Virus record (IMG/VR): IMGVR_UViG_3300045988_137643
Coordinates: 28,377-92,376 of that record
Strand: one strand, 5' to 3'
Length of the DNA: 64,000 nt
From: a virus
Lineage: Duplodnaviria > Heunggongvirae > Uroviricota > Caudoviricetes
Part shown: positions 24,846 through 29,818 of the stretch, one piece after another
Numbering within the stretch: position 1 is the first letter of the stretch
Layout of the letters: each line of letters opens with the position of its first letter
The notes under the pieces: model-generated
What the model was told of the DNA's origin: nothing
The model's database searches: none
Seen by the model: the letters and a program-made list of their open reading frames with translations, nothing else
Translations under genes and position numbers: made by a program

Positions 24846-25623
24846 AAACACAATAATAAGTATTTACTTACTTATTTTTTATGTATAAGATGACTTTGTT
24901 TTCGTTGAGACGCGACTGTTTGAACTTAAATACAAGTGCAAACGAAGAAGTCTATCTGGCAGTAGCCTAATAAGCCAAACACCAGCGAGGTCAGTTTCCA
25001 GCCTCGTTACCGAAATGGGACACACTGAGCGAGTGTGATTACAGAACGCAGGAGGGAACATTCATGTTCCCTCCGATGAAGTAACAGAATGGGCGGTTGG
25101 TATATTTTCAACTCCATATGACTCCCGGATTCTTAGCCACTGACCGTCCATCCTGTTACGTCATTTTGTTCAATTATGTCGTTTATACTGGGTTAAAAAG
25201 CGGCGACGTAGCCCGGCTGGTATGGTTAGCCAGCACACAACGTTGAGGCCATTACATTTTTATCAATTCTAAGGTTCTATCCACAGAAAAACCGGCGAAC
25301 GTTGATATGTAACATGTTGGGCAAACATTCAATCGGAGTAGTGGCCTCAACGTTGTGAAGACAGGATAGTTGTGTAGGTTTAACCACTGTTGCCATTGGT
25401 GCCTGTTTTCACAACAAATGATTCCATACATCACATTGTATAAATTACAAAGTAGGTGCTGTCCTCAGAAACATCATCTACTTAAAGAGTTTGCCTTCTA
25501 CTATTGAGCGAAGTCGAAAGCGTCTGGCACTAACGAAAAGTGCAAGTAGCGGTGCGTTTCCTGGCAGAAACTAAACCGTCGCGATTGGCACTGTTGAGTA
25601 ATAAATACTGGCAGTGCCGAATT

Positions 25624-25698
25624 GATGGTGTAGCTCAGCGGTAGAGCAGTTGGCTGTTAACCAACTGGTCGGTGGTTCGAATCCACCCACCATCGCCA
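25624..25698 (+). tRNA. tRNA-Asn (anticodon GTT)
   Basis: Cloverleaf read by hand: 7-bp acceptor gatggtg/caccatc, D-arm GCTC...GAGC, anticodon loop ctGTTaa, T-arm GGTGG-TTCGAAT-CCACC, encoded CCA. Confidence 0.8.
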
Positions 25699-25703
25699 AT
25701 TTA

Positions 25704-25790
25704 GGGGAGTTAGTCCGTAGGGGTAGCGGGGTAGACTGTAAATCTACTGTCATTGCGACTCGGGTGGTTCGACTCCATCACTCCCCACCA
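25704..25790 (+). tRNA. tRNA-Tyr (anticodon GTA), long variable arm
   Basis: Acceptor ggggagt/actcccc, anticodon stem GTAGA/TCTAC with loop cuGUAaa, T-loop TTCGACT, encoded CCA. Confidence 0.7.
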
Positions 25791-25794
25791 AATT

Positions 25795-25870
25795 GCCGGT
25801 TTAGCTCAGTTGGTAGAGCAGTCGCTTTGTAAGCGAATGGCCAGCGGTTCAAGTCCGTTAACCGGCACCA
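25795..25870 (+). tRNA. tRNA-Thr (anticodon TGT)
   Basis: Acceptor gccggtt/aaccggc, D-arm GCTCAGTTGGTAGAGC, anticodon loop ttTGTaa, T-loop TTCAAGT, encoded CCA. Confidence 0.7.
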
Positions 25871-26538
25871 ACATAATATTGAGAACATTGGCGTAACGGG
25901 GTCATATCCCAATCTATGAATAAATGTCGCGTTGCAGCGTGACAACCAGTGTTCTCAACATTGTGGTGAATGCACAGGCTGATGTGCCGCAACTACAGTA
26001 GTGCGCGCTTTGCGGGGCTTGCTACAACCCTGTGTCGGAGTTCAGCACCGACCATCACAATTTGGCTCTCTTGCAACAGCATAACGCTGAAATATGTCCA
26101 ACCTGGTGCGGCCTGTTCACCCGCCGTTAGCTCCACGAAACGGAGCGCACAACAGATAAGAGAACTTCCCATATGGGGCTTGGCTTAAATGCATCGAGTT
26201 CTCTTATCGCTGTGTCACAGACAAATTTCCGACAGCCCTGTTTATCATCGGACGCAACCTAAAAGGTCGAGGCAAAGCCAGGTAATAGCGGAGGGAGTGA
26301 CACAGCACACAACAGGTAAGAGCATTTGTAGAGTTCGACTCTCTACCGTGGGCTTTTTCCCGCGATGCGAGCCATAAATGCTCTTTCCGTTGTGGTGGAT
26401 TCGCAGACTGATGCGATAGCTTTCTTGGATGTTAGGGAAATGCGGCCGCAAATCTTCCCTTTCGCGAGCGGTGATCGTCCGTAGTCCTAATTGGCTGCAC
26501 CGTATGCCGGAGATTCAGTACCGGCCACCACAACGGCC

Positions 26539-26625
26539 GGAGAGTAGGGAGCATGGTGCTCAAGCGGTCTTGAAAACCGTCCCATTGTGCAAACGATGAT
26601 GGTTCGATTCCATTACTCTCCGCCA
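26539..26625 (+). tRNA. tRNA-Ser (anticodon TGA) candidate with atypical D-arm
   Basis: Acceptor ggagagt/actctcc, anticodon loop cuUGAaa, long variable arm, T-loop TTCGATT, CCA; D-loop unusually short so may be degenerate. Confidence 0.5.
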
Positions 26626-26804
26626 GACACAGCGTTGAGCGGTTTGGCCTTTTAATCACCCAGATTAAGACTCCGCTAACATAAACCAGACCGCTCAACG
26701 CTGTGATAGACAATTACGGCAGACGTTCTTAACCATAGCTTGCTAACATCCTAGCAACACTTTTTACAGCGCAAAATTCAAAGGGGCTTCGGCCCCTTTT
26801 TTGG

Positions 26805-27701
26805 TTACTGATTATCTAGGTATGCTATTAACTCATTTTTAATGATCAGTGAATATTCTAAAATCTCACCTAGTAAATACTCTGCTTTTTTAAAATGCCA
26901 CCCCATATAGCCTAATTTTTCTGAAGGTTTTTCTAACAACATTATAATATCGCCGTCTTTCTCTTTGGCAATGTATTGTCTTATTTCTATCTCCCCATTA
27001 TTTCTTGCCTTTCCACTTATTGATGATTCATCCAAAACTTTAGTTATAAACTTTTCCGTGTCGGTGAACTTTCCTGCATTATGCACAATTGTATGTCTTA
27101 GCAATTCAATTAGAGTGATCTCTAAACGATAGTTTTTACCCATCTTGTTATTTATTTCTACGTCTCTGAAATTGGGTAATTTTCTTCTAAATACTTTCAG
27201 GATTTTTTTTGGTGCTTTATTATTTCTTTTTATCGCATTGTAGTAGGTTTCCATGTCTCCATTTTGTTCGATCTGAACATTTTTAAATTCACTAGTTGAC
27301 CAAAAATGGTCATGAATACTCACTGTATGGGCATATATTTTCTTAATATAGTCTTCAAACAATTCATATGCTTCGGTTATAACCCATTGATACTGTTTAT
27401 TTTTTAACACCTCACATAATTTTATCTTCTCTGAGAGATCTGTTCTAGTATACCCAATTCCAAATGTTGAACCTGTATATGGATTTGAGCATGTATAGTT
27501 TGCTAACGTTGTCCCGCATGTTATTGGGGAAGTATTATTAGCATCTAGAGTTTGTACGTTTTCAAGTGTATGCTTAAATCGCTTTATGTTGTCTTTCGTT
27601 GTAACATTTATATGACCTAACAAGTCACAACGTAATATTATTTCATTTCTTAAATCAGTGAATATTTTTTCGACAAAAGAACCTGGTGGGTTTTCAATCA
27701 T
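26805..27701 (-). CDS. AT-rich accessory gene: HEPN-motif protein, candidate abortive-infection/RNase effector
   Basis: 298 aa; Rx4H motif (LLRHTIVHN) at about 27078-27110; markedly lower GC than flanking sequence; only minus-strand gene in its neighbourhood. Confidence 0.4.
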   Translation of the reverse strand: MIENPPGSFVEKIFTDLRNEIILRCDLLGHINVTTKDNIKRFKHTLENVQTLDANNTSPITCGTTLANYTCSNPYTGSTFGIGYTRTDLSEKIKLCEVLKNKQYQWVITEAYELFEDYIKKIYAHTVSIHDHFWSTSEFKNVQIEQNGDMETYYNAIKRNNKAPKKILKVFRRKLPNFRDVEINNKMGKNYRLEITLIELLRHTIVHNAGKFTDTEKFITKVLDESSISGKARNNGEIEIRQYIAKEKDGDIIMLLEKPSEKLGYMGWHFKKAEYLLGEILEYSLIIKNELIAYLDNQ

Positions 27702-27876
27702 CTAAACCTCTACGAAAATCTTACCTATAAGACAGTCCTTAATGTAATCTGTTTTCTCCACTACTTCAAATTACCTCACAATCTACCGATAGGTGACTAC
27801 CTACTTACATACAAAGTTGATTTATAGTATAGTCCCTCTGTTGCGTATTAGTATTTTTAAAGGCATTTGTTAAGTT

Positions 27877-28122
27877 ATGACGATCACTATCTACGGACGA
27901 GATAACTGCTCATACTGCAAACGTGCGGTCGAGCTGGCGAAGCAACTAAAGGGACATGGCTACGGTGATTATGAGTACATCGACATCACCACTGCCGGTA
28001 TCGACAAGAAAAAACTAAGTGAAATTGTTGGTAAACCGGTAGAGACTATCCCCCAAGTACTGATCGATGGTCAACCGATTGGCGGATACACAGAACTGGC
28101 TGCATACGTCAGCACCCTCTGA
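27877..28122 (+). CDS. Glutaredoxin-like redoxin (NrdH/Grx family)
   Basis: 81 aa; CSYC active site near N-terminus; thioredoxin-fold size. Confidence 0.7.
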   Translation: MTITIYGRDNCSYCKRAVELAKQLKGHGYGDYEYIDITTAGIDKKKLSEIVGKPVETIPQVLIDGQPIGGYTELAAYVSTL

Positions 28123-28128
28123 TTTTAA

Positions 28129-28152
28129 CGGCTCACAGGAGCCGTTTTTTAT
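28129..28152 (+). terminator. Rho-independent terminator
   Basis: CGGCTC-acag-GAGCCG hairpin followed by TTTTTT. Confidence 0.6.
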
Positions 28153-28202
28153 TCCCACCAAACTCACTCCTGTTTCCCTTAAAATTCAAAAAACAACGTC
28201 TA

Positions 28203-28235
28203 AATGATTCCATACCTACTATGTATGGAATCATT
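28203..28235. other. Lox/dif-like candidate recombination site: perfect 13-bp inverted repeats around a 7-bp spacer
   Basis: AATGATTCCATAC ctactat GTATGGAATCATT, about 100 bp upstream of the tyrosine recombinase gene. Confidence 0.45.
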
Positions 28236-28333: not shown

Positions 28334-29437
28334 ATGAAAAATAGCTTTGACAGAGCACGCGCTGCGGAGAACACCTCAAAAGAGGCGATTGAGTATCTCG
28401 AAAGAGCATCTCAAATGCAGGCCGTTATGATCTCGCAGGTTAGCATTGATATGAGATTCTCGGACGCATTCATGTTATTCACTCGCTTATCTCTGCTGAT
28501 AACCAGACGTCGGCCAGAGATCGCTGTTCATTGTATTTTGATACATGTTTTGCCGCACATTGCCGATGTAAAAGTAAGTGACATTAATAGGTTCATGGTG
28601 AACCAACTGGTCAACCCACTAATACTGGATGGCAAAATTGTTATGGGCCGCCGCGTTTTCTCTCTGATGAAGCAGTTCCTTAGCTGGTGCGCCTTCCAGG
28701 GGATGATAGACGTGTCACCGTTAAACGATATGTCACTAAACAAAGTTGCCGGTGGCGCAAAGCCCACACCTCGCGAGCGGAAGCTGACCGACGCAGAGGT
28801 ATGGGTGTTCTGGAATATATGGGACTACTTCAATGTGTGCGCTGGTACAAAATGGGCGGCCAGGCTGTGTCTTGTATCAGCAAGACGACCTGACGAAGTA
28901 CTGCGGGCTAAAAAAAGTGAGTTCAATCTTAAGCGTGGGGTTTGGAATCAAGGCAAGAGAAACAAGTCAGCACGTGAGCATTCGCTGCCTTTAAGCACAT
29001 TAATGCGCACATGCATTGAAGAGTTGTTCGAATACGGTAAAGACAGCCAGTGGCTCGTGCCTTCGAATAAAAAAATCGGGAAAGACCTTCCTATGTCTAA
29101 AGTGGCAATAGCCCAGGCATTACGTCGTATTCTGGAACGACCAGAACTGATGGAGCTTGAGCCATTTACACCCCGAGATTTGCGCCGTACTGCGCGTAGT
29201 TACTTCCCAGCATTAGGCATAAGCCAGGAGGTATCACGCAAAATCATGAACCACAGTCTTGAGGGGATAGATCGGGTCTACGACCGGCACGATTATATGG
29301 ACGAGATGCGAGACGCCTTAGAAAGTTTCTCGACGTACATCGCATCAATCGTAGAGCAACCGGATTTAGACGAAATTGACCACAAATTCAAGGGAGATCG
29401 TCTATCAACAGAGCTTATTCGTGTAAATTTTTCATAG
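28334..29437 (+). CDS. Tyrosine recombinase (phage integrase family)
   Basis: 367 aa; C-terminal catalytic-region residues (DLRRTARS, HSL, VYDRHDY). Confidence 0.7.
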   Translation: MKNSFDRARAAENTSKEAIEYLERASQMQAVMISQVSIDMRFSDAFMLFTRLSLLITRRRPEIAVHCILIHVLPHIADVKVSDINRFMVNQLVNPLILDGKIVMGRRVFSLMKQFLSWCAFQGMIDVSPLNDMSLNKVAGGAKPTPRERKLTDAEVWVFWNIWDYFNVCAGTKWAARLCLVSARRPDEVLRAKKSEFNLKRGVWNQGKRNKSAREHSLPLSTLMRTCIEELFEYGKDSQWLVPSNKKIGKDLPMSKVAIAQALRRILERPELMELEPFTPRDLRRTARSYFPALGISQEVSRKIMNHSLEGIDRVYDRHDYMDEMRDALESFSTYIASIVEQPDLDEIDHKFKGDRLSTELIRVNFS

Positions 29438-29818
29438 AGACTTTATGGCCTCAACAACCTTTTGTGATGCGCCTTTCTCTTTACCGAATCGCTCGTTATA
29501 TGCAGCAAGAACCTGTTTTTCGTCCTCGTTAAGAGGAGCGGTGCCTTCTTTGTATAAAAATGCTGCGAGTTCAGGTTGGCGTTCTTCCAGCACCATCATC
29601 ATAAGACGACTTGGCTCAATACCCAGCGCCAGCGCCAGCGGACGAACCTTATCGATAGGCAAAGGAATTTTGCCACTTTTAATTAAAGAAAGGTTGTTGG
29701 CATTTTTATAACCAATAAGTCTGGCTATTTGGGCCTGACTCATAGGTGAGGATTCAATCAGCCCTGCGATAAAAGCAGCATAGCGACTTTCTATAAATTC
29801 AATCTTGTTGTCAGACAT
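29432..29818 (-). CDS. XRE-family HTH repressor (CI-like)
   Basis: HTH SQAQIARLIGYKNANNLSLIKSGK; divergent from downstream + strand genes across an AT-rich 250-bp region. Confidence 0.6.
   Translation of the reverse strand: MSDNKIEFIESRYAAFIAGLIESSPMSQAQIARLIGYKNANNLSLIKSGKIPLPIDKVRPLALALGIEPSRLMMMVLEERQPELAAFLYKEGTAPLNEDEKQVLAAYNERFGKEKGASQKVVEAIKSL

Follow-up and report, generated by a model that had tools for sequence, protein, structure and literature searches.

A stand-alone HEPN-fold gene in an exchangeable cassette of SSU5-like phage-plasmids is a candidate phage-exclusion ribonuclease

Results

In this work, we analyzed a minus-strand gene at positions 26805-27701 of a 64,000-nucleotide stretch of tailed-phage DNA (the window; positions 28,377 to 92,376 of the IMG/VR record IMGVR_UViG_3300045988_137643), which matches SSU5-like phage-plasmids of about 108-112 kb, namely Escherichia phage CMS-2020a, Cyrano, pECOH89 and pMRY16-002_2. 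The gene occupies an exchangeable cassette, and we assign its 298-amino-acid (aa) product, with a probability of about 0.6, the role of a stand-alone, trigger-activated HEPN ribonuclease (RNase) used for phage exclusion by abortive infection. Within this assignment, we infer the RNase activity, the dimerisation, the expression in lysogeny, the trigger, the RNA target and the anti-phage phenotype.

Protein family and predicted fold

The protein has a full-length match in PHROGs (phrog_35492, function unknown). A word-indexed search retrieved only seven relatives; an exhaustive profile search retrieved representatives of at least 441 clusters at 50% identity, 169 of them below 1e-30, from many phyla. 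Almost every family member is a stand-alone protein of roughly 290 aa, and the 108 homologs with source metadata are all named "hypothetical protein" and carry no Pfam domain. Searching the literature by accession, PHROG identifier and plasmid name yielded no paper on the gene. The analyses below rest on an alignment of 136 sequences, mostly 20-30% identical to the window protein, with some counts made on 132 of them.

An earlier, sequence-only reading of this DNA had proposed structure prediction as a check for a HEPN-like fold. AlphaFold reached a predicted local distance difference test score (pLDDT) of 75.8 from seven sequences, and a pLDDT of 93.4 with a predicted template modelling score of 0.90 from the 136, and the latter model does place the core in a four-helix bundle. 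This predicted core is all-alpha, with two alpha-hairpins running up and down (H1, residues 6-54; H2, 89-129; H3, 191-208; H4, 272-297), and is interrupted by three family-specific inserts: a beta-hairpin (65-87), a helical segment of three short helices that are less conserved than H2 and H3 (130-190), and a set of helices plus a hairpin (209-271). Conservation peaks in H2 (2.37 bits) and H3 (2.56 bits) and is lowest in H1, in the loop 55-64 and in residues 231-241 and 254-271. The closest structural matches are the HepT toxins of type VII toxin-antitoxin (TA) systems.

As described by Anantharaman et al. 2013 (PMC3710099), HEPN domains have a core of two alpha-hairpins; an Rx4-6H motif that closes helix-3 or opens the loop to helix-4; a polar residue (N, D or H) right after the conserved R; and, close to this motif, a helix-2 acidic residue that is conserved and stands typically, though not obligatorily, in the form Ex3[KR]. 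The enzymes of the superfamily are metal-independent endoRNases with a composite active site formed in a dimer, and some HEPN domains are non-catalytic and serve for binding (PMC3710099). In the family studied here, R202-x4-H207 ends H3, the position given for HEPN domains, and is followed by the near-invariant G210; of 132 sequences, 129 have H and 3 have N directly after R202, in line with the polar-residue rule; and helix-2 contains the acidic residue E113, inside a block NKQYQW...EAYExFE. The Ex3[KR] form is not conserved (E113x3[KR] in 11 and E116x3[KR] in 18 of the 132). No column of the 136-sequence alignment is invariant except E113, R202 and H207, and N101, Q103, Y104, W106, Y112, Y123, W134, E182, N185, H203, I205, V206 and G210 are conserved in at least 90% of the sequences. 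Within the window, the codons of R202-H203-T-I-V-H207 lie at 27081-27098 and that of E113 at 27363-27365, both on the minus strand.

The sequence-only reading had pointed to the motif LLRHTIVHN, and the product does contain it. A lone Rx4H carries no weight by itself, since shuffling the 298-aa protein produces Rx4H in 28% and Rx4-6H in 63% of cases; the weight comes from its conservation across homologs. Because the structural features agree with the published description, yet without a sequence-profile match to any established HEPN family, we file the protein as a new family inside the HEPN superfamily, a model-based homology that rests on structure and active-site logic. We consider it highly probable that it is a HEPN-fold protein of the catalytic kind, catalysis being predicted.

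An exchangeable cassette in the phage-plasmid backbone

The whole exchangeable unit measures 1073 bp (26804-27876) and comprises the gene and its 5' region. Homology to Cyrano, which lacks the gene, stops at 26803 and restarts at 27877. Compared with the pECOH89 allele, the cassette is 61-78% identical and its flanks 96-100%, and the 5' region (27702-27876) diverges along with the gene (64-77% identity, versus 96-100% past 27900). Synonymous divergence (dS) between these two alleles is about 1.07, a value that, between near-identical flanks, indicates old lineages moved by recombination and not fast local evolution. The gene-wide ratio of nonsynonymous to synonymous divergence (dN/dS) of 0.2-0.45 in turn indicates a functional gene under purifying selection, and at this gene-wide resolution it gave no sign of positive selection.

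The composition of the cassette gene is equally distinct. Its GC content is 0.314 (0.28 at third codon positions) versus 0.459 for the window, with a sliding profile that falls to 0.30-0.33 exactly across 26805-27701, and in every host the gene has 29-35% GC and its flanks 45-55%. Altogether, the view of an AT-rich, horizontally acquired insertion is supported by the homology breaks, the allele divergence and the base composition. The claim that the gene runs opposite to all of its neighbours holds for the adjacent genes, which are on the plus strand (tRNA-Asn/Tyr/Thr, 25624-25870; tRNA-Ser, 26539-26625; the glutaredoxin gene grx, 27877-28122; and an integrase gene, 28334-29437), and fails further out, where a repressor-like gene (29432-29818) is also on the minus strand.

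The open reading frame (ORF) extends from an ATG at 27699-27701 to a stop codon at 26805-26807, and a GAGG Shine-Dalgarno sequence precedes the ATG by 5 nt (27707-27710) in the 5' intergenic part (27702-27876), which is shared divergently with grx. The gene presumably has its own promoter inside this region, where the sole candidate is a sub-threshold -35/-10 pair, TTGAAG-17-TACATT (27741-27769).

By tblastn, the gene was found in 58 PLSDB plasmids, all typed as non-mobilizable (Escherichia, 29; Klebsiella, 27; Citrobacter, 1; Pseudomonas, 1), and in two phage records. Taking carriers of the backbone ligase as a count of SSU5-type backbones (about 650 plasmids), roughly 9% carry the gene and about 91% lack it; neither SSU5 itself nor any representative from Enterobacter, Salmonella or Yersinia has it. 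The E. coli, Klebsiella and Citrobacter copies lie beside the tRNA cluster on the strand opposite to the tRNAs and the glutaredoxin gene, which immediately adjoins them in E. coli and is 1-2 kb off in Klebsiella and Citrobacter. This position is constant despite allele identities of just 97, 87, 56 and about 38%.

In sibling phage-plasmids, the same slot holds other cargo: a 637-aa DUF1737/SASA-esterase/DUF6645 protein in CMS-2020a SCU-175 (locus L047, 2674-4587), chaperone-usher fimbriae together with an AraC regulator in PhiR41_1 (L046, 567-4599), and a gp49-like gene plus a 184-aa minus-strand ORF in Cyrano (L001, 4596-5927). PADLOC matched none of this cargo. We considered and rejected the possibility that the slot is a defence hotspot; with an esterase, fimbriae and a gp49-like gene as its other occupants, it is a general accessory-gene hotspot.

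Genomic neighbourhood of the homologs

Fourteen IMG/VR viral contigs carry a family member, and most members are chromosomal, in bacterial defence islands or integrative elements. We compared 36 independent chromosomal loci from Beta-, Gamma-, Delta- and Epsilonproteobacteria, Bacteroidota, Nitrospira, Spirochaetes, Aminicenantes and others. Of 99 proteins encoded no more than two genes away from a homolog, at least ten strongly match models of known or candidate defence systems: a type IIG restriction-modification (R-M) system, a type I S subunit, PD-Lambda-1, PD-T7-5, PDC-S13, PDC-S15 (twice), PDC-S32, Avs4 and AbiEi. One further neighbour is a ToxN toxin by Pfam, and the neighbours also include integrases, Bro-N proteins, P2 tail genes and transposases. 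One B. pseudomallei homolog shares an island bounded by an integrase with Shedu (SduA_C), ABC-3C, RelB and a Gp49/HI1420 pair, and an Enterobacter homolog abuts transfer genes at the edge of an integrative and conjugative element (ICE). The suggestion that the gene is defence cargo is supported only by association, through distant homologs that adjoin Shedu, ABC-3C, type IIG R-M, Avs4, PDC-S15, PDC-S32, integrases and ICE genes; such a conflict-system context is guilt by association and not proof.

The upstream neighbour is co-oriented with the homolog at 33 of 36 loci, often across a gap of less than 100 bp, and the downstream neighbour at 19 of 37. These co-oriented upstream genes are unrelated to one another. 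The ten most tightly coupled of them include five defence proteins of five unrelated systems, one integrase and one IS200-type transposase, and family members may insert preferentially at the 3' ends of other defence operons.

At one locus, from a Burkholderiaceae metagenome-assembled genome (L042, 2582-3079), a 166-aa ORF located 12 bp upstream of the family member matches the PADLOC model RTasHEPN weakly (E 3e-4) and has no PDB sequence match. This locus may represent a tandem HEPN arrangement. The use of this neighbour as a bridge to HEPN sequences in the PDB failed for lack of a PDB match.

Partner genes, RNAs and tRNAs

BLASTP clustering of three flanking genes per side at the 36 loci revealed no neighbour family that recurs beyond sister species, and the 170 small ORFs within 450 bp of homologs are likewise conserved only between sister species. 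No MNT nucleotidyltransferase was found among conserved neighbours at these loci, and in the window the gene is flanked by tRNA-Ser and grx. Since no neighbour is conserved, the protein appears to act alone, in agreement with the remark in the sequence-only reading that no partner antitoxin is evident.

The companion idea, that it acts with a nearby non-coding RNA (ncRNA), did not survive. No tandem or direct repeats were detected in 26500-28200, nor notable inverted repeats in the cassette; the 5' leader of the cassette folds no better than its shuffles (z 0.53); and the only Rfam matches near the gene are tRNAs. On these grounds, an RNA antitoxin or other ncRNA partner was rejected.

We also rejected a linkage to the tRNAs. 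A tRNA lies within 6 kb of the homolog at just 3 of 37 distant loci, and gene-less siblings (Cyrano and CMS-2020a SCU-175) keep the same tRNAs, including, in one sibling, tRNA-Tyr. Adjacency to tRNAs is therefore neither a family trait nor tied to the gene within the phage-plasmids, which leaves the ncRNA option unsupported on this side as well. The tRNAs of the element (Asn-GUU, Tyr-GUA, Thr-UGU and Ser-UGA) all encode CCA and are 48-72% identical to their E. coli K-12 isoacceptors; their 7-nt anticodon loops are identical to those of K-12 except at position 32 of tRNA-Thr, so that there is no sign of loop changes evading a nuclease.

Discussion

Proposed mechanism and points against it

We propose that the phage-plasmid carries a single-gene accessory cassette with its own expression signals, on the strand opposite to the adjacent genes, and that the protein would be made in the lysogen in an inactive state. 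E113 together with R202, H203 and H207 would make up an RNase site that is metal-independent and probably needs both subunits of a homodimer to be complete, as in other HEPN enzymes, and the three inserts, as likely autoinhibition and sensing parts, would hold the nuclease inactive. A component of an incoming phage would then switch it on, and the activated nuclease would cut cellular tRNA or mRNA, so that translation halts and the infection is aborted, with protection of the host population and of the resident element as the outcome.

Several results weigh against the proposal of a phage-excluding HEPN RNase. Pfam, NCBIfam, PADLOC and PDB sequence searches with the window protein gave no match. 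Across the 136 members, Pfam returned no consistent family, a single one of them matching PF05168 weakly (E 0.0037), and the 136-sequence profile found no HEPN chain among PDB sequences, only the spurious CmlS and SNAP-25. Foldseek, run with the good model against the PDB, returned nothing significant. The predicted proximity of E113 to R202 and H207 in space is deduced from the topology of the model. Furthermore, a promoter scan of the minus strand of 27702-27876 gave no hit at threshold. Finally, since siblings fill the same slot with non-defence cargo, location alone does not imply defence.

Alternative explanations

A rather unlikely alternative is that the protein is the toxin of a TA or plasmid-addiction module whose antitoxin, such as a very small peptide, a cis or antisense RNA or a gene located elsewhere, was overlooked, and which stabilises the phage-plasmid by post-segregational killing. 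This would fit the structural resemblance to the HepT toxins and a low-copy plasmid prophage as the carrier, where addiction modules are useful; some HEPN toxins, such as AbiF, are indeed controlled by RNA, and the frequent co-orientation of the upstream gene (33 of 36 loci) would leave room for variable partners. However, neither an MNT gene, another neighbour nor a small ORF is conserved across the 36 loci, the cassette is devoid of tandem repeats and of a structured leader, and the genes coupled tightly on the upstream side are complete genes for defence or mobility that bear no relation to one another. In addition, some 91% of SSU5-type backbones live without the gene, and solo HEPN proteins that need no antitoxin are documented. 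Less credible than any of the others is a non-catalytic helical protein with a structural, regulatory or binding role, in which the Rx4H match would be incidental. The high rate of Rx4H in shuffles, the failure of profile libraries to call a HEPN domain, the silence of Foldseek and the existence of HEPN domains that serve for binding all agree with such a protein, but the invariance of the E/R/H triad makes it very improbable.

We also regard as unlikely that the RNase serves the phage life cycle or counter-defence, by host shutoff, by RNA processing (of the adjacent tRNAs, for example) or as a HEPN ring nuclease acting against cyclic-oligonucleotide signals. HEPN enzymes do include RNA-processing nucleases and degraders of cyclic oligoadenylates, and no more than a few hundred bp separate the gene from the tRNA cluster in any of the phage-plasmid alleles examined. 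Against this stand the siblings that retain those tRNAs without the gene, the scarcity of tRNAs at the distant loci, the transcription of the gene opposite to the adjacent plus-strand tRNAs, grx and integrase gene, and the location of most members among chromosomal defence islands and integrative elements, which fits defence more than anti-defence. An extended version of the phage-exclusion proposal would describe a widespread new single-gene abortive-infection family with a new mode of trigger sensing borne by the three inserts, and would make the tRNA adjacency functional: host tRNAs would be cut outside the anticodon loop, and the divergent tRNAs of the element would act as resistant replacements. 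If it were true, the phage-plasmid would keep translating while its competitors starve. The tRNAs of the element and of K-12 do differ in their stems and resemble each other in their loops, but a resistance to the nuclease based on the stem differences has no support, and we hold the extended version to be quite improbable.

Comparison with known HEPN systems

The closest conceptual precedent for a stand-alone, phage-excluding HEPN RNase is HepS, the "HEPN solo" abortive-infection protein of the Gifsy-1 prophage (PDB 9oik; Sargen et al., Nature 2026, PMC13043305), which is triggered by a tail-tip protein, cleaves tRNA-Thr/Ile/Ser, has no antitoxin and is non-toxic upon overexpression (PMC13043305). 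As in that case, the HEPN gene found here stands by itself on a prophage, and no partner co-occurs with it. The two proteins differ, however, in that (i) they have no detectable sequence relation, the family profile finding no HepS chain in the PDB at E values up to 10, (ii) the protein described here has 298 aa, versus about 218 aa for HepS, and contains three family-specific inserts and a long N-terminal helix, and (iii) it is carried by a plasmid prophage and HepS by an integrated lambdoid one. ApeA and DARNA (PD-T7-3) are also single-protein HEPN anti-phage tRNases without antitoxin that stay inactive until triggered. Whereas DARNA consists of an N-terminal HEPN domain and a 300-aa Pds5-like domain, the inserts found here lie within one HEPN domain, and none of the 2023 PADLOC models, which cover known and candidate defence systems, matches the window protein.

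The HepT/DUF86 toxins (PDB 8xdj, 5yep, 7ae2 and 1ylm; HI0074, 1jog) are about half the size of the 298-aa protein, and the DUF86 and HEPN Pfam models give no match here. In contrast to HepT-MntA type VII TA systems, no adjacent MNT nucleotidyltransferase antitoxin is present. The HepT motif RX4HXY, whose tyrosine is the AMPylation site, also differs from the one found here (RHTIVHNAG), where A209 instead of Tyr stands two residues after H207; a Y109 site is named in the title of the 7ae2 entry. The HEPN proteins of lactococcal Abi systems (AbiD/AbiF, that is, Pfam Abi_2; AbiV; AbiU2; and the C-terminal HEPN domain of AbiA) have no Pfam or PADLOC match to the window protein either. Moreover, type III (RNA antitoxin) systems such as ToxIN and, as reported, AbiF have tandem RNA repeats directly upstream of the toxin gene, and none occur in 26500-28200.

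Significance

Since HepS, ApeA and DARNA have already established the concept of a solo HEPN defence protein, what is new is the family and its putative regulatory inserts, and not the concept. If our reading of the gene holds, the family would be another group of self-contained HEPN immune nucleases, with at least 441 clusters at 50% identity in many bacterial phyla. It has gone uncounted in defence censuses because Pfam, NCBIfam and PADLOC miss it and PHROGs lists it without a function. The carriers described here are SSU5-like phage-plasmids found in E. coli and Klebsiella, among them elements of the pECOH89 type, by which CTX-M-15 is spread, and a phage-exclusion gene on such carriers would shape which phages, therapeutic ones included, grow on the carrier strains. 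The anciently diverged alleles on near-identical backbones constitute a natural series for mapping trigger specificity.

Other features of the region

A terminator scan located a hairpin (26780-26799) with a perfectly paired, GC-rich stem of 8 bp, preceded by an A-run and followed by a T-run. It lies 5 nt beyond the stop codon of the HEPN-fold gene, downstream of tRNA-Ser and in the flank conserved in Cyrano; from its sequence, it resembles a terminator that could act in both directions. Directly after tRNA-Ser, an inverted repeat (26628-26647 / 26686-26705) pairs 20 nt at 95% complementarity across a 38-nt loop. It lies outside the cassette, as its flank is 96% conserved in Cyrano, which has no HEPN gene, and it may serve as a hairpin for processing or termination, or as a site of recombination.

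The segment of about 670 bp between tRNA-Thr and tRNA-Ser (25871-26538) has no tRNA or Rfam match. Within it, about 25890-26378 is missing from pMRY16-002_2, and the first 300 bp or so are common to P1, P7 and D6; the segment may be decayed tRNA or mobile DNA. Upstream of tRNA-Asn, about 770 bp are non-coding (24850-25620) and include, at 24919-25021, a weak Rfam match of transfer-messenger RNA-like or tRNA-like type, far under the gathering threshold (17 bits, E 0.017). Between grx and the integrase gene, a 33-bp self-complementary element (28203-28235) gives an inverted blastn match in every relative compared and may be a binding site for an integrase or repressor.
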